From: Salinivirgaceae bacterium
GTDB lineage: Bacteria; Bacteroidota; Bacteroidia; Bacteroidales; SZUA-534
Assembly: GCA_016284875.1 (NCBI GenBank)
Contig: JAEEPS010000002.1
Location: 18,363-82,362, forward strand
Reading direction: 5' to 3'
Length of the DNA stretch: 64,000 nucleotides
Each line of letters opens with the position of its first letter. Position 1 is the first letter of the stretch. Position numbers and translations under genes: made by a program. The notes beneath the pieces were generated by a model that did not search any database, was not told the origin of the DNA, and was given only the letters and a program-made list of their open reading frames with translations. Positions 459 to 50,378 of the stretch are shown piece after piece.

Positions 459-464
459 ATTATT

Positions 465-570
465 AATTACGAATTTTGAATTACGAATTACGAATTTGAT
501 TGGTGAATCGGTCAATCGGCGAATTGTCTGTCTTCCAATCGATTATCCGATTATACAATTCACCGATTCA
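465..570. repeat. Heptad-periodic intergenic repeat tract (AATTACG/AATTTTG units, then AATCGG/CACCGATT words)
   Basis: Direct reading gives taattac gaatttt gaattac gaattac gaatttg, followed by gaatcggtcaatcggcgaatt ... ccaatcgattatccgatt ... caattcaccgattca. Strings recur at 12111-12126 and 12140-12154. Confidence 0.8.
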
Positions 571-7451: not shown

Positions 7452-7453
7452 TT

Positions 7454-7497
7454 GAAGTTTTAAGTTCTTAAAGTTTTAAGTTACAAGGTACAAGTCA
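7454..7497. repeat. Heptad-periodic intergenic repeat (AAGTTnn units)
   Basis: gaagttt taagttc ttaaagttt taagtta caaggta caagtc. The reverse complement contains ccttgtaacttaaaactt, closely matching ccttgtaactttaaactt at about 40729-40746. Confidence 0.7.
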
Positions 7498-7537
7498 TTG
7501 AAACCTACACTCAACCGGTTTCCTTTTATCTGAATTA

Positions 7538-10878: not shown

Positions 10879-10980
10879 ACTGTCACAAATTTTAACGGCA
10901 CGAAAGTAGTAAAAAAATGTGTGAATTCTCTATTACGCTCCTTTGCATAGCCCATATAATAAATTTCTGTAAATTTTTCT

Positions 10981-10994
10981 TGCAACCGATTGCA
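10981..10994. promoter_or_regulatory. Candidate LacI-family operator (14-bp near-palindrome TGCAACCGATTGCA)
   Basis: Matches TGnAAnCGnTTnCA at every constrained position. It sits 47 nt upstream of the regulator ATG and about 20 nt upstream of a -7-like box. Confidence 0.5.
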
Positions 10995-11013
10995 AAACTT
11001 GTTGCGAAAGTTG

Positions 11014-11040: not shown

Positions 11041-12057
11041 ATGGATAAAAGCGAAATAACCATCTACGACATTGCCAAAGAGTTAGGAATTTCGGCTTCG
11101 ACTGTGAGCCGCGCGCTGAACAACAACGCCAGCGTGAGCCAGAAAACTCGGCAGGAAGTGGCCGACTGCGCTGAAAGGCTCGGCTACCGCAACAACCCCT
11201 TCGCTGCAAACCTTCGCAAGGGTACAACCAACACCATCGGCGTGATTGTGCACAGGCTGGACAGCCTTTTCATCTCGGCCTTCTTGAGCGGGGCGGAAAA
11301 GGCAGCGGCTTCGCGCGGATACCAACTAATTATAGTTCAGTCGTTTGAAGACTCGAACAAAGAGATTGCAAATGCCAAAACAATGCTCGAAAAGCGCGTG
11401 GACGGACTTCTGGTGGCTGTGGCCAAAAACAGCGACTCGGTGGCACACTTCAAGCCGTTCAACAACTTTGGCATTCCGCTCGTATTCTTCGACCGCATCA
11501 TCCCCAACCTTGACTGCGCAAGTTTCTCGATTGACAACTACTCGGCTGCCTGCAAAGTGGCCACTCACCTTGCAGAGCAAGGCTGCTGCGACATTGTGCA
11601 CGCCACTATCGAATCAACATCAATGGTGTATCGCGAGCGCGAGCGCGGATTCAACGAGACGCTAGACAGGCTCGGAATCAGGCACCGCACGCTGCTAATG
11701 CCGAACATCGATTTTGAGTCGGGTAAGGATTTGGCCAACTCACTGAAAGCCAACGGACAAATGCCCGACGGCGTGTTTTTCAGCAACGATATGTCGGCGG
11801 CGGGATTCATCACGGGCGTGCAGGATTTGGGAATGAAAGTGCCTGACGACGTGGCAGTTGTGGGCTTCAACAATGACATCACAAGTCGAATTGTGAAACC
11901 GAACCTGACAACCATCAACTACCCTGCCAACGAACTCGGAACAATGGCGACAAACCACATTATCGACCACCTGCAAGGTGTTAACAATCTGTATGTTACC
12001 AATCAAGTGGTGCTGAAATCGGATTTGATTGTGAGAGAGTCATCGATAAGGCATTAG
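11041..12057 (+). CDS. LacI-family transcriptional regulator
   Basis: N-terminal HTH ITIYDIAKELGISASTVSRALNN followed by a periplasmic-binding-protein-like sugar-binding fold. The start is trimmed from the track ORF (10990) to the ATG that precedes the HTH. Confidence 0.9.
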   Translation: MDKSEITIYDIAKELGISASTVSRALNNNASVSQKTRQEVADCAERLGYRNNPFAANLRKGTTNTIGVIVHRLDSLFISAFLSGAEKAAASRGYQLIIVQSFEDSNKEIANAKTMLEKRVDGLLVAVAKNSDSVAHFKPFNNFGIPLVFFDRIIPNLDCASFSIDNYSAACKVATHLAEQGCCDIVHATIESTSMVYRERERGFNETLDRLGIRHRTLLMPNIDFESGKDLANSLKANGQMPDGVFFSNDMSAAGFITGVQDLGMKVPDDVAVVGFNNDITSRIVKPNLTTINYPANELGTMATNHIIDHLQGVNNLYVTNQVVLKSDLIVRESSIRH

Positions 12058-12175
12058 GCAACAGGCACTAGGCATTAGGGTAGAATTATGAATTATGAAT
12101 TATGAATTATGAATTACGAATTACGATTCACCGATTAAACAATTCACCGATTCACCGAAAAAAGTCACCAATTAA
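12050..12175. repeat. Composite heptad-periodic repeat tract: GCATTAG-type units, (GAATTAT)x4 (GAATTAC)x2, then CACCGATT words
   Basis: Direct reading. The regulator stop codon TAG (12055-12057) is part of the first GGCATTAG unit. 18 nt (12063-12080) are identical to 50306-50323. Confidence 0.9.
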
Positions 12176-12186
12176 ACTATAAGGCA

Positions 12187-14295
12187 ATGAGAATCAAAAA
12201 TTTAACATCAATGACGTTTGTGGCGGCGGGACTGCTGGCCTTGGCTTCGTGCTCAAACAACAACACGCGTACAACCATCGGCGACGACGGTCACCTGCTG
12301 TGGTTCAACTCGTTACAAATGGAAGCGCCTGCTACGCTCGGCCCGACGACCTTGCAGATTGCGCAGGAAAACATTGCAAAATATTGGAAATCAGACCGCA
12401 AGGTTGAACTGGAACTGAACAGCGAAGCCGTGGCCGAACTTGGAACGGAAGGTTTTGAAATCGATTTTTCGGGCGCAAATATCTGTGCGTCAGCCAATAG
12501 CGAAGTTGGTCTGCTCTACGCTTCGTACGAACTTCTGCGCCTTCAGGAAACTGACGGACTGGCCGCTCAAAACGGCAAACTGACGAGCGTTCCCGCCTTC
12601 GAGCGCCGCGTGCTCAACCACTGGGACAACCTTGACGGCACCATTGAGCGCGGGTTTGCGGGACATTCGCTTTGGAAATGGGACGAAATCAATGCCGACG
12701 ACGTGGCCGCCAACAGCAACATCTACGCCGAATACGCCCGCGCCAACGCGTCGGTGGGCATCAACGGCACGGTGCTGAACAACGTGAACGCCAACGCCGA
12801 CATTCTGACCGAAGATTATCTGCTGAAAGTGAAGGCTTTAGCCGAGATTTTCCGCCCATACGGACTGAAGGTCTATCTGTCGCTGAACTTTGCGGCGCCA
12901 AAACATCTGGCCAACCTTGAAACATCAGACCCGCTTGATAATGAAGTGGTTGCGTGGTGGAATGCAAAGGTTGCCGAAATCTACAAACTGATTCCCGATT
13001 TTGGCGGTTTTCTGGTGAAAGCCAACTCTGAAGGGCAGTCGGGACCGCAGGACTACGGCCGCACTCACGCCGACGGTGCCAATATGATTGCCAAAGCGCT
13101 AGAGCCGTTTGGCGGAATTGTTATGTGGCGCGCCTTTGTGTACGACGCCAAAAGTCCCGACCGCGCCAAACAGGCGGTTGAAGAGTTTATGCCGCTCGAC
13201 GGCCAATTTGCTGATAATGTGTTGATTCAGATAAAGAACGGGCCTGTGGATTTCCAACCGCGCGAACCGTTCAGCCCGCTTTTCGGACAGTTTGAGAAGA
13301 CACAGGCAATGGTTGAAGTGCAGATTACGCAGGAATATCTGGGCCACTCTAACCATCTGGTGTTTATGCACCCAATGTGGAAAGAGTGCTTGGATTCAGA
13401 CACTTACGAGCGTGGCGAAGGCTCAACTGTGGGCGCCATCACCGAAGGCAAGGTTATGCCATATAAATACACGGCCATTGCGGGTGTGAGCAACGTGGGC
13501 AACGACCGCAACTGGTGCGGACACCATTTCGCGCAAGCAAACTGGTACGCCTACGGACGAATGGCGTGGAATCCCGAACTATCGTCAGAACAGATTGCTA
13601 ATGAATGGATTATGCAGACATTCTCGAAAGAGAAAGAGTTTGTTGAGCCTGTGAAAAAGATAATGCTGGCATCGCGCGAAGCGTGCGTGAAATACGAAAT
13701 GCCGCTCGGCCTGCACCACACCTTCAAAGGCCCCGACCACTACGGACCTGGCCCGTGGGACCGCTCTATCCGCCCCGACTGGGAACCCGCCTATTACCAC
13801 AAGGCTGCCGCCGACGGCGTGGGATTCGACCGCACAATGAAGGGCTCGGGCGCTGTGGCACAGTATCACGAGCCGCTGAAATCGCAGTTCGACAACGTGG
13901 CGACCTGCCCCGAAAACCTGATTCTGTGGTTCCACCACTTGCCGTGGGACTACAAAATGAAGAGCGGACGCACGCTCTGGGACGAGTTGTGCCTGACCTT
14001 CCAATCGGGTATCAACGACGCGCGCTCGTTCGTCGACATTTGGAACTCGGTCGAGCAATATGTTGACCCACTGCGTTTTGCCGACGTTAAAGTTCGGCTT
14101 GAGCGTCAGGCGAAGGACGCAATCTGGTGGCGCGACGCGACAATCCAATACTTCCAACAATTCTCGGGAATGAGCCTGCCCGACGGCTGTCAGCCGTTCC
14201 AACAGAAACTCGACAAACTTATGAAGTACCGCATCGGCATCACCAACTACGAGAATCCGAAGATTGAAACATTACCTGAATATCAGTTGAAGTAA
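12187..14295 (+). CDS. Alpha-glucuronidase, glycoside hydrolase family 67
   Basis: 702 aa with a lipoprotein-type signal (LALASCS) and GH67-typical segments RVLNHWDNLDGTIERGFAGHSLW and LVKANSEGQSGPQDYGRTH. Confidence 0.9.
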   Translation: MRIKNLTSMTFVAAGLLALASCSNNNTRTTIGDDGHLLWFNSLQMEAPATLGPTTLQIAQENIAKYWKSDRKVELELNSEAVAELGTEGFEIDFSGANICASANSEVGLLYASYELLRLQETDGLAAQNGKLTSVPAFERRVLNHWDNLDGTIERGFAGHSLWKWDEINADDVAANSNIYAEYARANASVGINGTVLNNVNANADILTEDYLLKVKALAEIFRPYGLKVYLSLNFAAPKHLANLETSDPLDNEVVAWWNAKVAEIYKLIPDFGGFLVKANSEGQSGPQDYGRTHADGANMIAKALEPFGGIVMWRAFVYDAKSPDRAKQAVEEFMPLDGQFADNVLIQIKNGPVDFQPREPFSPLFGQFEKTQAMVEVQITQEYLGHSNHLVFMHPMWKECLDSDTYERGEGSTVGAITEGKVMPYKYTAIAGVSNVGNDRNWCGHHFAQANWYAYGRMAWNPELSSEQIANEWIMQTFSKEKEFVEPVKKIMLASREACVKYEMPLGLHHTFKGPDHYGPGPWDRSIRPDWEPAYYHKAAADGVGFDRTMKGSGAVAQYHEPLKSQFDNVATCPENLILWFHHLPWDYKMKSGRTLWDELCLTFQSGINDARSFVDIWNSVEQYVDPLRFADVKVRLERQAKDAIWWRDATIQYFQQFSGMSLPDGCQPFQQKLDKLMKYRIGITNYENPKIETLPEYQLK

Positions 14296-14391
14296 ATTGA
14301 AAGTTGAAAATTGAAAATGAAAACTTTATGACTGAAGGCGCAGTTGAGAGACGGCAAAAGTCCGTTGTCTGAAGTCTGTGGTCTGAAGTCC
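14287..14391. repeat. Heptad-periodic repeats (TTGAAAn x4; GTCTGAA/GTCTGTG x3) flanking a short hairpin
   Basis: ttgaagtaaa ttgaaag ttgaaaa ttgaaaa tgaaaac overlaps the GH67 stop codon. It is followed by gtctgaa gtctgtg gtctgaa gtcc at 14367-14391. Confidence 0.75.
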
Positions 14392-14428
14392 AAAAATAGA
14401 ATCAAAAACATTTAAAAATCAAAGTATT

Positions 14429-15256
14429 ATGGACAACAACACTCAAATGTACAGCATTGAGGGCAAGGTTGCCATCATCACGGGCGCTGGTGGCGTTCTG
14501 GGTGGCAGCGTAGCCAAAAGTTTTATGCGCGCTGGCGCGAAAGTGGTGGCTCTTGACATCCGTCAGGAACAACTCGACAAACGCATCGAGGAACTGAACG
14601 CCATCGGCAACGGCGAGGCAATGGGCTTGATTTGCAACGTTTTGGACATCGATTCAATCAAAGCAATGGCCAACAAGGTGGTTGAGAAATGGGGCCGCAT
14701 CGACATCCTTATCAACATTGCAGGCGGCAATATGCCTGGCGCCACTCTCCGCCCCGACCAACCTATCTTCGATATGAAAATTGAGGACTGGAACAAGGTT
14801 ACCAACCTGAATATGAACGGAACAGTTTATCCGTCGATTGTGATTGGCGAGATTATGGCCAAACAGAAGAAGGGCGCAATGGTGAACATCTCGTCGATGG
14901 CCGCTCTGCAGTCGATGACCAACGTGCCTGGCTACTCGGCCGCAAAAGCCGCTGTAACTAACTTCACGCAGTGGATGGCAATGGAAATGGCGCTGAAATA
15001 TGGCGACGGCATCCGCGTGAACTCTGTTGCACCTGGATTCTTCATCGGCGACCAAAACCGCGCCGTGCTCTTGAACCCCGACGGCTCGCTCACCGAACGC
15101 AGTCATAAAGTGCTGGCAAACACACCAATGCGCCGCTTTGGCGACATCAACGAGTTGAACGGCGCCATCCAATTCCTGTGCTCTGACGCCGCATCGTTCA
15201 TCACTGGCGCCAACCTGCCAATCGACGGTGGATTCAGCACATTTAGTGGTGTATGA
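14429..15256 (+). CDS. uxuB: Short-chain dehydrogenase/reductase, D-mannonate oxidoreductase type
   Basis: 275 aa with the SDR Rossmann motif ITGAGGVLGG and the catalytic YSAAK. Its position immediately upstream of uxuA matches the Bacteroidales glucuronate pathway. Confidence 0.75.
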   Translation: MDNNTQMYSIEGKVAIITGAGGVLGGSVAKSFMRAGAKVVALDIRQEQLDKRIEELNAIGNGEAMGLICNVLDIDSIKAMANKVVEKWGRIDILINIAGGNMPGATLRPDQPIFDMKIEDWNKVTNLNMNGTVYPSIVIGEIMAKQKKGAMVNISSMAALQSMTNVPGYSAAKAAVTNFTQWMAMEMALKYGDGIRVNSVAPGFFIGDQNRAVLLNPDGSLTERSHKVLANTPMRRFGDINELNGAIQFLCSDAASFITGANLPIDGGFSTFSGV

Positions 15257-15289
15257 TTTTAGTTGTCAGATATTTATAACTGAATCAAT

Positions 15290-16536: not shown

Positions 16537-16574
16537 GTGGAGACGTCACAATTGTGGCGTCTCTACTTGTTTTT
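16537..16574 (+). terminator. Rho-independent terminator after uxuA
   Basis: GTGGAGACG ... CGTCTCTAC forms a 9-bp stem with one G-U pair, followed by TTGTTTTT. Confidence 0.6.
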
Positions 16575-16738
16575 AAGGGGCGATGCTAATGACGTTTGAC
16601 TGAAAATCAGAGATACTCCTGCCCTATCCGTGGAAAATTGACAAACAAAGTTTGTAAAACGATAAAGAGGGTAACACCGCCAAAAAGAATGATTATTTTT
16701 GTGTTATTATTGCATGAAATCATAAAAAGAGCCAATAT

Positions 16739-19851: not shown

Positions 19852-19920
19852 GCCGTTTTATCCAATCATCAATTTATTGATTTCTAAATCTTTAATTCAG
19901 TTAATCAGTTATTCAATCCT

Positions 19921-36414: not shown

Positions 36415-37812
36415 TTATCTTCGTCCACGACCGCCACCACTACTGTGACCGCCACTACTGTGACCGCCACTGCTATGACTGCCGCCACTACTGCGGCTGC
36501 CACCGCTGTAACTGCCACCGCTGCTGTGACTACTGCCACTACTGCGGCTGCCACCGCTGTAACTGCCACCGCTGTAACTGCCACCGCTGCTGTGACTACT
36601 GCCACTACTGCGGCTGCCACTGCTGTAACTGCTGTGCGATGAGCCAGAACTTGACGAAGATGAAGATGAAGATGAAGATGAACTTGACCGGAATGAAGAA
36701 CTACTGCTACTATGCGAAGTTCCGCTACTACTACTGCTACTACTGCTACTGCCGCTGCTGTATGTAGAGCTTGACCCGCGAGTTGCTGTGCTCACCCTGC
36801 TGCCTGTACGCGCTGTTGTGCTTGGCTGTTGCTGCACACTGCGTCCACGGCTTTGTGTTGCTGATGCCGATCTTGTTGATGATGAAGCACTTCCTTGATT
36901 AACGTTGCTGTTATTACTATTGGTTGCCTGACTTGATGAACTTCTGCTGGCTCCGCTTTGCGAAACAGAACCATTGGTAGTTGAAGTGCGTCCGCGAACT
37001 GCCGTGCTTGACGAAGCCGCCGTGCTTGACGAACCCGATCCGCCTGAATGACCAACTACAGTTGAAGAGTTGCCACTATTCCGCGACTCTCCACTTCGTC
37101 CGCGAATTACAGTTCGATCATCACGCGACGACGAGGTGCTGGTTGTCGCACTCCGCCTTGGGCCATAGTTGCGACTGTTGCTGCTGCTGGCATAGTTGCT
37201 GTGATGATGGCGATGGCGATAAGTGTACAACGGATAATAATGCCGATAGTATGGATAGTAATGGTGGTAGTACCACGGATCGTAATATCCATAATAGTAA
37301 TCCCAATATGAGTAATAACTCGGATAATAGTGATACCCGTAATACCAATTATTATAATAATGATGATGATAACGCCATGAATAAGGATAGCCGAATGTCA
37401 AGTCCCAAGCCAAATCCCAAGCAAGATCATCCCATCCCCAACGGTCATAATAATAAACATGCACATTGACAGGTTGGACATTGACATCTGTCTCTCCATC
37501 AGCGAAATACTTTCCATCATAATCATCACTGAAACGCATCAAACGGCGCTCGTACTCTCCCATCTCGCCGTCATCAGTCTCTCCTCCGTCATAATTATCA
37601 GCATCGTCATTATCTCTGTTGACTTTTGCCATCTGATATTCTTCCGATTCGGAAGCCGATGTCTGAGCATAACTCGTTTCCTGTTTGATGTCAGTCTTAG
37701 GATTGAAATAAACGTCGTCGTAATAATACCCCGTCAATCCTGCTGTTGAACCGCATGAAGCAGCAAACCCTGTTGCCGCCGCTGCCACTAATAATAAAGT
37801 TAGATTTTTCAT
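36415..37812 (-). CDS. Extreme low-complexity lipoprotein: acidic segment, Tyr/His/Trp-rich segment, long Ser/Thr/Gly/Arg-rich tail with tandem GGSYS/SSGSSHS repeats
   Basis: 465-aa ORF with the canonical lipobox GFAASC. The aromatic block reads WRYHHHYYNNWYYGYHYYPSYYSYWDYYYGYYDPWYYHHYYPYYRHYY. The last roughly 270 aa are almost entirely S/T/G/R/N/H. It ends 33 nt upstream of the FadL-like gene. Confidence 0.7.
   Translation of the reverse strand: MKNLTLLLVAAAATGFAASCGSTAGLTGYYYDDVYFNPKTDIKQETSYAQTSASESEEYQMAKVNRDNDDADNYDGGETDDGEMGEYERRLMRFSDDYDGKYFADGETDVNVQPVNVHVYYYDRWGWDDLAWDLAWDLTFGYPYSWRYHHHYYNNWYYGYHYYPSYYSYWDYYYGYYDPWYYHHYYPYYRHYYPLYTYRHRHHHSNYASSSNSRNYGPRRSATTSTSSSRDDRTVIRGRSGESRNSGNSSTVVGHSGGSGSSSTAASSSTAVRGRTSTTNGSVSQSGASRSSSSQATNSNNSNVNQGSASSSTRSASATQSRGRSVQQQPSTTARTGSRVSTATRGSSSTYSSGSSSSSSSSSGTSHSSSSSSFRSSSSSSSSSSSSSSGSSHSSYSSGSRSSGSSHSSGGSYSGGSYSGGSRSSGSSHSSGGSYSGGSRSSGGSHSSGGHSSGGHSSGGGRGRR
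36425..36730. repeat. In-frame tandem DNA repeats (15-nt subunit; 51- and 66-nt higher-order units; GAAGAT hexamer run)
   Basis: gccactactgcggctgccaccgctgtaactgccaccgctgctgtgactact at 36484-36534 recurs at 36535-36600 with one extra 15-nt unit, and again partially from 36601. (gaagat)n lies around 36655-36685. Confidence 0.85.
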
Positions 37813-39455: not shown

Positions 39456-39488
39456 TTGAAGGACAGATTAATTGAATAACAGAAAGGA

Positions 39489-39520
39489 GCCTGACGGGCA
39501 TATGCTTGTCGGGCTTTTTT
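39489..39520 (+). terminator. Rho-independent terminator after proS
   Basis: GCCTGAC-12 nt-GTCGGGC stem with one G-U pair, followed by TTTTTT. Confidence 0.65.
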
Positions 39521-39590
39521 CGTTTCCGTCCCCGCCCCCATTTTCAATTGTTATTTTTTAATTGTTATTTTGCCTAAAAAAATTACCATC

Positions 39591-40637: not shown

Positions 40638-40776
40638 TGGTTAGGCATTAGGCATTAGTAAATTAGGAATTAGAAATATTAAACTTGTTAAACCTGTTAA
40701 ACTTTAAACTTATACCTTGTACCTTGAACCTTGTAACTTTAAACTTCGAAAACTTATAACTTAAAATATAAATAAT
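40638..40776. repeat. Composite heptad-periodic repeat tract (TAG-containing GCATTAG-type units, AAACTTGTT words, TTGnAAC units)
   Basis: ggttag gcattag gcattag taaattag gaattag ... aaacttgttaaacctgttaaactttaaac ... ttgtacc ttgaacc ttgtaac tttaaac ... ttataac ttaaaat, running up to the ATG at 40777. Confidence 0.85.
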
Positions 40777-47348: not shown

Positions 47349-47426
47349 TCCAACCCTAAACTTCCAACTTCAACCTAACTCTTTATTCTGAATTCTAAAT
47401 TCTAAATTCAGAATTCAAAACCCTAA
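47349..47426. repeat. Heptad-periodic intergenic repeat (TTCTGAA TTCTAAA TTCTAAA TTCAGAA TTCAAAA) with internal palindrome
   Basis: Direct reading. TCTGAAT ... ATTCAGA are inverted copies. It is preceded by ccaaccctaaacttccaacttcaacctaac. Confidence 0.75.
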
Positions 47427-50285: not shown

Positions 50286-50292
50286 TAATTAA

Positions 50293-50354
50293 GGCATTAG
50301 GTTTTAGGCACTAGGCATTAGGGATTTTAAACTTGTTCAACCTTTAAACCAAAC
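50293..50354. repeat. Heptad-periodic repeat tract (GGCATTAG GTTTTAG GCACTAG GCATTAG) plus an AAACTTGTTCAACC module
   Basis: Direct reading, with the same module order as 40638-40700. 18 nt (50306-50323) are identical to 12063-12080. Confidence 0.85.
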
Positions 50355-50378
50355 ACAAAAAAAAGAAACACTTTAATA

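Follow-up and report, generated by a model that had tools for sequence, protein, structure and literature searches.

A compound heptamer and octamer repeat tract in a rumen Salinivirgaceae operon as a lineage example of intergenic heptanucleotide repeats

Introduction

To our knowledge, the intergenic heptanucleotide repeats that have been reported since 1990 from cyanobacteria, Xanthomonas, Beggiatoaceae and a few Bacteroidetes have no accepted origin or function. In later accounts of the work of Mrazek, Guo and Shah (2007) on long simple sequence repeats with units of 5-11 nt (LSSR5-11), heptanucleotides are the commonest class of long simple sequence repeat (SSR), for which polymerase slippage is proposed (PMC4679880, PMC4692102). 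TAACTGA heptamers occur in marine Beggiatoaceae, cyanobacteria and five Bacteroidetes (MacGregor 2015, PMC4679880), and other intergenic heptamers are GGGAATC in Xanthomonas and GGGGAYT in Nostoc (Rehm et al. 2015, PMC4692102), with STRR in Calothrix. This literature offers two explanations, slippage of the polymerase in a 7-nt register and, possibly, spread by horizontal transfer (PMC4679880, PMC4692102). Here we analyse a tract of this kind at positions 12049-12186 of a 64-kb stretch (the window) of the metagenome-assembled genome (MAG) of an uncultured rumen Salinivirgaceae bacterium (Bacteroidales), where it separates a LacI-family regulator gene from a GH67 alpha-glucuronidase gene.

In two further systems heptamers are part of a known RNA. 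Expression of hmw1A in Haemophilus influenzae is inversely proportional to the number of (ATCTTTC)n repeats in its 5' untranslated region (5'-UTR) (PMC12721329), and Coxiella 23S rRNA has an intervening sequence (IVS) that carries an S23p open reading frame (ORF), terminal inverted repeats that are cleaved by RNase III and heptamer repeats that vary in number (PMC4990558). The hmw hairpin and the Coxiella IVS are thus precedents for repeat arms that act as RNA stems.

A first-pass annotation of the window had taken the tract and its counterparts in other spacers for related copies of a modular element that it did not recognise as a described REP/BIME/MITE-type family. We find that it belongs to a described kind (LSSR5-11, STRR, GGGAATC, TAACTGA; PMC4679880, PMC4692102): the tract adds a further lineage to the known class of intergenic heptanucleotide repeats and is not a new mobile element or RNA gene. 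Our preferred explanation, to which we give a probability of roughly 0.6, is that it is a compound heptamer/octamer SSR in an operon-internal spacer, made by slippage, tolerated as extra untranslated mRNA and subject to a filter on orientation.

Results

A compound repeat tract inside an operon

The tract consists of three repeat blocks followed by a non-repeat leader (Table 1), and direct reading returned the sequence as first annotated. Tandem Repeats Finder (TRF) resolved block 1 (12049-12079) into 4.4 copies with 79% matches and block 2 into 5.9 copies with 97% matches and a score of 75, both at period 7, and block 3 into 4.4 copies with 77% matches at period 8. Accordingly, the 7-nt period originally assigned to the whole tract holds for blocks 1 and 2, whereas block 3 is an octamer array. 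Each block therefore contains at least three tandem copies of a 5-11-nt unit, as do members of the heptanucleotide SSR class. The last codons and the TAG stop (12055-12057) of the LacI gene do fall within the first repeat unit, and in relatives, where the LacI gene encodes 338 aa (JGI and ENA gene calls), the C-terminal residues as read from the sequences track the local first unit (IRH, VRI, VRN, KRI).

The operon has the gene order LacI - GH67 - SDR - UxuA. A Bacteroidota -7 promoter motif, TATATTTG, lies 27 nt 5' of the LacI ATG, and a hairpin followed by a T-run is found 3' of UxuA at about 16537-16575. The promoter motif TAnnTTTG, which occurs 5' of nine genes in the window, is absent from the 129-nt LacI-GH67 spacer and from every array-bearing spacer of the window (0/8). 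As promoter and terminator motifs are missing from it, the tract would be part of one operon transcript.

Arrays change by whole units between close relatives

The relatives of the GH67 gene (82-98% protein identity) come from MAGs labelled Salinivirgaceae or uncultured Bacteroidales/Bacteroidetes, recovered from gut compartments of sheep, yak and water buffalo and from other metagenomes. Over 7.6 kb, one of them (L088) matches the window at 98.4% identity; its tract contains five heptamers (six in the window) with another pattern at the Y position and seven octamers (four in the window), and the spacer that follows does not differ. In seven close relatives the LacI-GH67 spacer measures 123-210 nt and holds 3-9 heptamers and 4-11 octamers. 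In these seven, the interrupted AGGCAxx units of block 1 are kept unit for unit and the last 32 nt before the GH67 ATG are near-invariant, although the adjoining arrays vary. The orthologous spacers of close relatives thus differ in the number of units, as expected for the SSR class, and not in the presence or absence of blocks.

At larger distances the units themselves are replaced. L002 and L040, whose GH67 is 94-96% identical, have TTAGGAT/TTAGGAG units at the LacI-GH67 position, other units occupy it in L005, L006 and L041, and the types found there outside L002 and L040 are AGGCATA, GAATTAY with GTCTGTA, and CTAAACN. In the outgroup L011 (horse gut, 73% GH67 identity) the same four genes are separated by array-free spacers of 10, 31 and 21 nt, compared with repeat-filled operon spacers of 59-250 nt in some 25 relatives whose hosts are sheep, yak, buffalo and cattle. 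The arrays are thus recent, dispensable for the operon and altered by whole units, and the identity of their units is not conserved. This is microsatellite behaviour, and it argues against a sequence-specific cis element at the tract. It also goes against the first-pass distinction between a modular element and microsatellites, given that pure arrays shift by whole units between near-identical strains, that other unit families take their place in relatives with GH67 as close as 94-96% and that the likeness of non-orthologous spacers stops at the repeat units.

Arrays are frequent in intergenic DNA and beyond chance

The window contains eight array-bearing spacers (Table 1), in line with the original estimate of at least eight, and a weak ninth at 19892-19915. 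Counting arrays of at least three copies in the 4,954 nt of intergenic DNA of the window, we found seven of period 7 and two of period 8, compared with means of 0.045 and 0.035 and a maximum of 1 in 200 dinucleotide shuffles. Such an excess over chance (9 arrays against about 0.08) with restriction to non-coding DNA is a further property of the SSR class. The three exact identities noticed earlier are all correct (12111-12126 with 478-493, 12140-12154 with 556-570 and 12063-12080 with 50306-50323), and the 18-mer at 12063-12080 had no match in 100 dinucleotide shuffles, even at two mismatches. The tracts therefore exceed chance, as claimed, and they are intergenic and recur in many spacers from a limited common set of units. 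The further claim that shared strings recur in the same order holds for the 15- to 18-mers, but the array at 459-570 is inverted relative to transcription because its flanking genes are on the minus strand; read in gene orientation, this spacer has the inverted pair GAATCGGTGAATTG ... CAATTCGCCGATTGACCGATTCACC followed by (ATTCGTA)n.

We determined the distribution of arrays in a pool of the window and 12 orthologous clade loci, the counts of which are hence not independent. In clade intergenic DNA the frequency of identical bases is 0.329 at lag 7 and 0.315 at lag 8, with further peaks at 14 and 21, over a baseline of about 0.277. The lag-7 peak is absent from clade coding DNA, which has the period-3 signal only, and from the intergenic DNA of 67 other Bacteroidota loci (0.281), so that the period-7 autocorrelation suggested as a check on the first-pass annotation proved, in the loci sampled, to be intergenic only. 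Arrays cover 16% of the bases of co-directional spacers (33/96 spacers), 2.7% of divergent spacers (1/17), 5.6% of convergent spacers (2/14) and 0.10% of coding DNA. Within the window, arrays are present in about half of the spacers inside operons, some of these spacers being ahead of housekeeping genes. Purine-rich heptamers just 3' of stop codons were also seen in a few other rumen Bacteroidales (Prevotella MAG L074, L015, L019 and L020), and heptamer arrays in the Paludibacter MAG L068.

AGG-type units are polar within clade spacers, and units recur in unrelated genomes

Along the co-directional spacers of the clade, read in gene orientation, the GC skew runs from +0.28 and +0.21 to -0.08, -0.17 and -0.17, a trend that holds for window genes on both the plus and the minus strand; in other Bacteroidota spacers it runs only from +0.12 to +0.02. 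Among distinct clade spacers, AGG-N4-AGG is found in 20 of 75 stop-proximal halves versus 0 of 75 start-proximal halves, and CCT-N4-CCT in 0/75 and 1/75, respectively. Stop codons in all frames were considered as the cause of this polarity and dropped, since AGGCATT and AGGCACT have stop triplets whichever strand is read.

The units are not confined to the clade. We found (AGGCAYT)3 in at least 120 metagenome contigs with a GC content of 30-74%, the array being outside predicted ORFs in 77 of the first 80 loci examined, and (GAATTAY)3 in at least 119 viral contigs of IMG/VR (median GC 0.43), of which 19 exceed a GC of 0.55. For two control heptamers matched in composition the numbers are 61 and 53 viral contigs, AT-rich for the most part and including one contig each at GC >0.55. 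GAATTAY arrays are common in IMG/VR contigs, also in contigs of 55-64% GC, and several contigs carry 3-5 separate ones; examples from this set (L211-L329) are L275:4789-4851 and L246:12877-12939. The octamer pattern was found at 2 viral loci only, and a BLASTN search with the tract found nothing among GenBank phages, the low-complexity filter having probably masked the query. Relative to genes, the arrays have no global polarity (38 versus 57 for GAATTAY in viruses, 25 versus 21 for AGGCAYT in metagenomes), so the polarity is clear only within the clade and for the position in the spacer. Because the same units recur across spacers, unrelated genomes and viruses, the choice of units is not random.

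The tract lacks the features of structured RNAs and of palindromic or transposable elements

No Rfam family matched the window at the gathering score, nor the region 11900-14500 at E<=1. The predicted minimum free energy of the tract is -16.2, compared with -13.9 +/- 2.9 in shuffles (z = -0.8), and a structured RNA was rejected on these two results. The eight window spacers range in fold z from -3.2 to +2.4, hence without a general tendency to fold or unfold; spacer 40638-40776 is less structured than its shuffles. No long-range partner was found in the rest of the operon transcript (-51.1 versus -50.6 +/- 3.2 for shuffled spacers), and there is no complementary arm for an hmw-type hairpin either within the spacer or in the operon transcript.

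The first-pass annotation was right to set the tract apart from repetitive extragenic palindromic (REP) sequences, bacterial interspersed mosaic elements (BIME) and miniature inverted-repeat transposable elements (MITE). Palindromes, stem-loops and defined ends are lacking: the units are direct repeats without significant folding, which rules out REP/BIME, and an alignment of 455-575 with 12078-12190 matches only inside repeat units and reveals no terminal inverted repeats, target-site duplications or defined ends, which rules out a MITE. With regard to named heptamer families, the STRR1-3 units reportedly described by Mazel et al. in 1990 in a heterocystous cyanobacterium (CCCCAGT, TTGGTCA and CAACAGT) are not among the TRF consensus units of this Bacteroidales MAG, and 12049-12186 contains no TAACTGA array. 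TAACTGA-related octamers, CTGATTAA, are present only at 19892-19915 of the window (2.9 copies) and, in relatives, as the arms described below.

Complementary repeat arms flank PF05635 genes in relatives

Many relatives have, between SDR and UxuA, a PF05635 gene for a bAvd-like 23S rRNA intervening-sequence protein (IVP) of 127-140 aa, flanked by heptamer or octamer arms (Table 1). The arm sequence varies between variants while the pairing stays: cognate arm duplexes reach -28 to -40 kcal/mol and non-cognate ones -7 to -20 kcal/mol, with an exceptional non-cognate pair at -32 kcal/mol (L041 upstream arm with L005 downstream arm). When genes are ranked by the complementarity of their flanking spacers, PF05635 genes are at the top and GH67 is not high; gene-spanning stems as a general rule were rejected, as only PF05635 genes stand out. 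The cassette resembles an intervening sequence of the rRNA type that sits in an operon for mRNA instead. Such a cassette is not found at the tract itself, which has neither the ORF nor the partner arm; HMM search detected no PF05635-like ORF in the window, and none was found in about 800 kb of non-clade GH67 loci.

Outside the clade, an inverted partner, (ARTGCCT)n, accompanies AGGCAYT metagenome arrays within 1 kb; it is downstream of the array at 20 of the 120 loci and upstream of it at 3, over a background of 0.028 per kb. The G-rich arm thus comes first, an asymmetry that reads the same on both strands, and the arm pairs enclose loops of 5-117 nt or small ORFs, in some cases PF05635 genes. 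PF05635-like genes are present in seven of these 120 loci and adjoin the array in six, and in the viral GAATTAY loci the array is next to an IVP gene in 1/119. Examples among the AGGCAYT loci (L091-L210) are L139:8664-8760, L142:2100-2560, L114:8424-8930 and L129:271-330. In L096 the arm pair encloses a 130-aa ORF that resembles, by eye, a MaoC/hotdog-fold dehydratase, and L118:100-2600 contains three PF05635-like ORFs in 2.8 kb, one of them with AGGCATT / AATCCCT-type arms. A literature search combining IVS protein, four-helix bundle and inverted repeats found no paper.

Neighbouring spacers and other features

The GH67-SDR spacer (14296-14428) is 97.7-100% identical in L005, L082 and L088, in which GH67 is 86-96% identical, and it may be a functional RNA or DNA element. 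The 275-aa SDR (14429-15256) is 100% identical in protein to those of L081-L090 where the GH67 DNA is about 82% identical, and an identity of 93-97% in the SDR DNA points to very strong purifying selection. An exact search with the SDR protein gave matches, and one with the GH67 protein gave none. Recent horizontal transfer of an SDR cassette with breakpoints in the arrays was rejected for this reason, since the protein is identical across species but the DNA is not. From the GH67-SDR spacer through UxuA, L088 does not differ from the window (100% identity), but in LacI and GH67 it is 95-96% identical, a step that suggests a recombination breakpoint.

L001-L004, L009 and L040 are without the SDR gene; their GH67-UxuA spacer of 119-251 nt (for example L004:8113-8334) has up to seven unit families strung in a fixed order and a possible mini-ORF, ATGAAAATGGTGTTGGGTGTTGGGTGTTAG. 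Directly 5' of the LacI promoter motif, at 10968-11012, is TTGCAACCGATTGCAAAACTTGTTGC, conserved in the divergent spacers of all relatives and likely to be an operator of the LacI family. The palindrome GTAGAGACGC..N..GCGTCTCTAC with a T-run recurs 3' of UxuA and of other clade genes and looks like a shared intrinsic-terminator or REP-like hairpin family. Elsewhere, at 36429-36752, within the minus-strand ORF 36415..37812, coding tandem repeats with periods of 15, 18, 33, 51 and 66 (GCCACTGCTGTAACT-like units) presumably encode a low-complexity repeat segment of the protein.

Table 1. Coordinates of the tract, its operon neighbours, the array-bearing spacers and the related features in other loci (window positions unless a locus with the prefix L is given)
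Feature	Position	Strand	Remarks
LacI-family regulator gene	11041..12057	+	Pfam LacI + Peripla_BP_1/3/4
LacI-GH67 spacer	12058..12186	+	array-bearing
Block 1, degenerate AGGCAYT heptamers	12049..12080	+	AGGCATT AGGCAAC AGGCACT AGGCATT AGGG
Block 2, pure heptamer array (GAATTAT)x4 (GAATTAC)x2	12083..12123	+	most variable part
Block 3, octamers CGATTCAC CGATTAAA CAATTCAC CGATTCAC CG	12124..12158	+	
A-rich non-repeat leader ahead of GH67 ATG, 28 nt	12159..12186	+	last 32 nt before ATG near-invariant in seven relatives
GH67 alpha-glucuronidase gene, 3' of tract	12187..14295	+	Pfam Glyco_hydro_67M and 67C
Spacer with GAATTAC and CGATTCAC-type units	459..570	-	fold z = -1.0
Spacer with CTTGTAC/CTTAAAA heptamers, just 5' of start codon in gene orientation	7452..7537	-	
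GH67-SDR spacer, AATTGAA + GTCTGAA/GTCCGTT units, GC-rich core	14296..14428	+	fold z = -1.7
Spacer with 16-nt + 14-nt units (AATTGAA versus TTCAATT cores) flanking a terminator-like hairpin	39456..39590	+	fold z = -3.2
Composite spacer: TTAGGCA/TTAGGAA, then TTAAACTTG, then CTTGTAC/CTTAAAA units	40638..40776	+	fold z = +2.4
Spacer with TTAGGGT + GAATTYA heptamers (gene orientation), palindromic hairpin inside	47349..47426	-	fold z = -2.7
Spacer with AGGCAYT heptamers directly after stop codon, then TTAAACTTG-type units	50286..50378	+	
PF05635 genes	L005:9062-9644; L041:6069-6569; L008:9048-9660; L087:4440-5018		
Empty PF05635 site	15257-15289		33 nt, array-free
Arms GTACAAG / CTTGTAC (5' / 3')	L005, L085, L087		
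Arms AGGCATA / TATGCCT (5' / 3')	L041		
Arms CTGATTAA / TTAATCAG (5' / 3')	L006, L008, L010, L082 and others		
Palindrome GTAGAGACGC..N..GCGTCTCTAC	~16537-16575; L001:9456-9530; L003:9470-9540; L009:6050-6120		

Discussion

Proposed slippage with an orientation filter

According to the explanation that we prefer, a slippage-made compound SSR tolerated in the operon mRNA, slipped-strand mispairing at replication would create and resize the arrays. New unit variants would arise by point mutation and then be amplified; adjacent blocks are 1-2 changes apart (GAATTAT > GAATTAC; CGATTCAC > CAATTCAC/CGATTAAA). Arrays would persist at sites where a longer mRNA spacer does little harm, and the tract, which is neither a sequence-specific regulatory RNA nor a mobile element or hairpin, would at most determine how long the intercistronic mRNA is and what it is composed of. 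The units and orientations that survive would be filtered by selection on the transcript, or by some process linked to transcription, because G-rich AGG-type units are found only just after stops in the sense direction and C-rich ones towards the next start.

Several points weigh against this explanation. Neutral slippage leaves two features unaccounted for: the strict sense-strand polarity of the AGG-type units, and the presence of the same units across phyla and viruses, AGGCAYT and GAATTAY recurring in unrelated genomes and viruses irrespective of GC content. A few unit families also turn up repeatedly in non-orthologous spacers, down to an identical imperfect 18-mer, and the spacer 14296-14428 is more conserved than its flanking genes. 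Co-transcription across the tract is deduced from missing promoter and terminator motifs. Finally, the evidence comes from 64 kb and one orthologous operon in about 25 relatives, orthologous loci are non-independent samples, and to call the pattern lineage-wide is an extrapolation. The first-pass annotation had itself named unconstrained slippage in sister strains among the findings that would make the tracts neutral debris; for copy number this is largely what we observe, but the polarity and the non-random units oppose purely neutral debris.

Alternative explanations

One alternative starts from the PF05635 cassettes. Specific heptamers (AGGCAYT, GAATTAY, TAACTGA-like and others) would belong to cosmopolitan, undescribed repeat-armed elements that often enclose genes for Avd-like 23S-IVS proteins inserted between cistrons, and the tract would be their decayed product and not a home-grown microsatellite. 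We regard this as speculative, with the odds clearly against it. If it were true, G-first inverted heptamer arms would form RNA or DNA hairpins as an mRNA counterpart of rRNA intervening sequences, and in the rumen Salinivirgaceae clade such elements, together with their decayed, slippage-prone arms, would have colonised most operon-internal spacers.

A narrower form of the idea, which we consider unlikely, is that the heptamer tracts were the inverted-repeat arms of small selfish cassettes carrying an S23p/Avd-like IVP gene, with a G-rich arm 5' and a C-rich arm 3', that insert between operon genes and are probably excised from the mRNA by RNase III, and that loss of the ORF and slippage left unpaired arrays. 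It would account for the G-first polarity and the common unit repertoire, and it draws on the variant complementary arms around the PF05635 gene between SDR and UxuA, on the excess of downstream over upstream partners of AGGCAYT arrays and their occasional IVP genes (7/120), and on the Coxiella IVS with its terminal inverted repeats, RNase III excision and variable heptamer repeats (PMC4990558). At the tract, however, the spacer is without an ORF, a complementary partner or a significant fold, its three blocks are not mutually complementary, and an IVP gene occupies this position in 0 of about 25 relatives. The empty IVP site of the window is array-free, and viral GAATTAY arrays almost never adjoin IVP genes.

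Equally improbable is an expression rheostat of the contingency-SSR type, in which copy number would tune translation or mRNA stability of GH67. Copy number is hypervariable among strains and species at a fixed position ahead of the start codon, the tract is probably transcribed within the operon, and action of a heptamer SSR through a 5'-UTR is known from experiments (PMC12721329). Unlike contingency loci, however, arrays occupy about half of the operon-internal spacers, including those before housekeeping genes; the hmw mechanism depends on a partner arm that completes a long hairpin, and the tract has no such arm; and the outgroup operon has a spacer of 10 nt at this place.

Very unlikely, in our judgement, is a row of binding sites for a protein that recognises single-stranded nucleic acid and covers about 7 nt (a cold-shock/S1-type OB fold or another RNA-binding protein), which might recruit or exclude ribosomes on mRNAs without Shine-Dalgarno sites; TAACTGA repeats have been proposed to act in this way. 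Shine-Dalgarno pairing is not what Bacteroidota rely on, and the arrays are sense-strand polar and lie on the mRNA between stop and start codon, as such a role would have them. CspB is reported to bind heptamer repeats with one protein per unit (PMC4679880). Against this, orthologous positions differ in their unit sequence, many unrelated unit families are present side by side, and it is the non-repeat leader adjoining the start codon that is conserved.

That the tract is a discrete modular mobile element of MITE or REP type copying itself between spacers is scarcely credible: 15- to 18-mers do stand in the same order in non-orthologous spacers, but the likeness is limited to repeat units without ends of any kind, the composite at 459-570 is inverted and rearranged relative to its flanking genes, and the same short units also occur in unrelated genomes.

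Significance and comparison with known systems

The clade provides an unusually clean comparative series, in which one four-gene operon has short spacers in the outgroup and repeat-filled ones in its relatives, and this series shows that the arrays are dispensable, recent, probably driven by slippage and confined to operon-internal mRNA spacers. They are useful as marks of operon-internal spacers and as markers for strain typing. Because stop codons sit inside the repeats, short-read assemblies and gene callers can err at these arrays.

By the accounts cited (PMC4679880, PMC4692102), LSSR5-11 repeats are, like the tract, head-to-tail units of 7-8 nt in intergenic DNA, with lineage-limited abundance and a variation in length that is put down to polymerase slippage. 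The taxa they name are Burkholderia, cyanobacteria, actinobacteria and Xanthomonas, the rumen Salinivirgaceae clade not being among them, and what sets the clade apart from these accounts is the concatenation of several unit families per spacer with strand polarity.

The TAACTGA repeats are likewise intergenic direct repeats of a heptamer, oriented to the downstream start and mostly directly before it, on mRNAs with few Shine-Dalgarno sites, and they too are missing from the same spacer in close relatives (PMC4679880). In Elizabethkingia, Gramella and Aequorivita they occur within "larger assemblages of heptamer repeats", as in our tract (PMC4679880). The units are different, however, and a single unit dominates in Beggiatoaceae, compared with the many families found here (PMC4679880); the clade relatives do carry TAACTGA within the octamer of their IVP arms, while the tract itself is without it.

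The GGGAATC, GGGGAYT and STRR repeats share the heptamer period and the intergenic location, also between the genes of an operon (pecE-pecF) (PMC4692102). In sister species the same genes flank them while length and sequence vary widely, and inverted pairs occur occasionally (PMC4692102). Units of the GGGAATC/GGGGAYT type are G-rich and capable of forming G-quadruplexes, unlike those of the tract, which are AT-rich with at most 2-3 consecutive G and cannot form them.

The hmw1A repeat resembles the tract as a heptamer SSR 5' of a start codon with strain-variable copy number (PMC12721329), the transcription of the tract being deduced. It differs in that a G-rich arm pairs with it, giving a long hairpin that RNase III cleaves, and in that it controls one adhesin gene (PMC12721329); the tract has no partner arm or significant fold, and arrays are pervasive in the window. 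The 23S IVS of Coxiella and Leptospira is similar to the cassettes of the relatives, not to the tract, in having a PF05635 ORF within inverted-repeat arms and associated heptamers (PMC4990558), but it lies in helix 25 or 45 of 23S rRNA, whereas the cassettes lie between protein-coding cistrons and have heptamer or octamer arms (PMC4990558). The tract itself is ordinary for its class, but the clade is well suited to the question of why certain heptamers, in certain orientations, proliferate in some bacteria.

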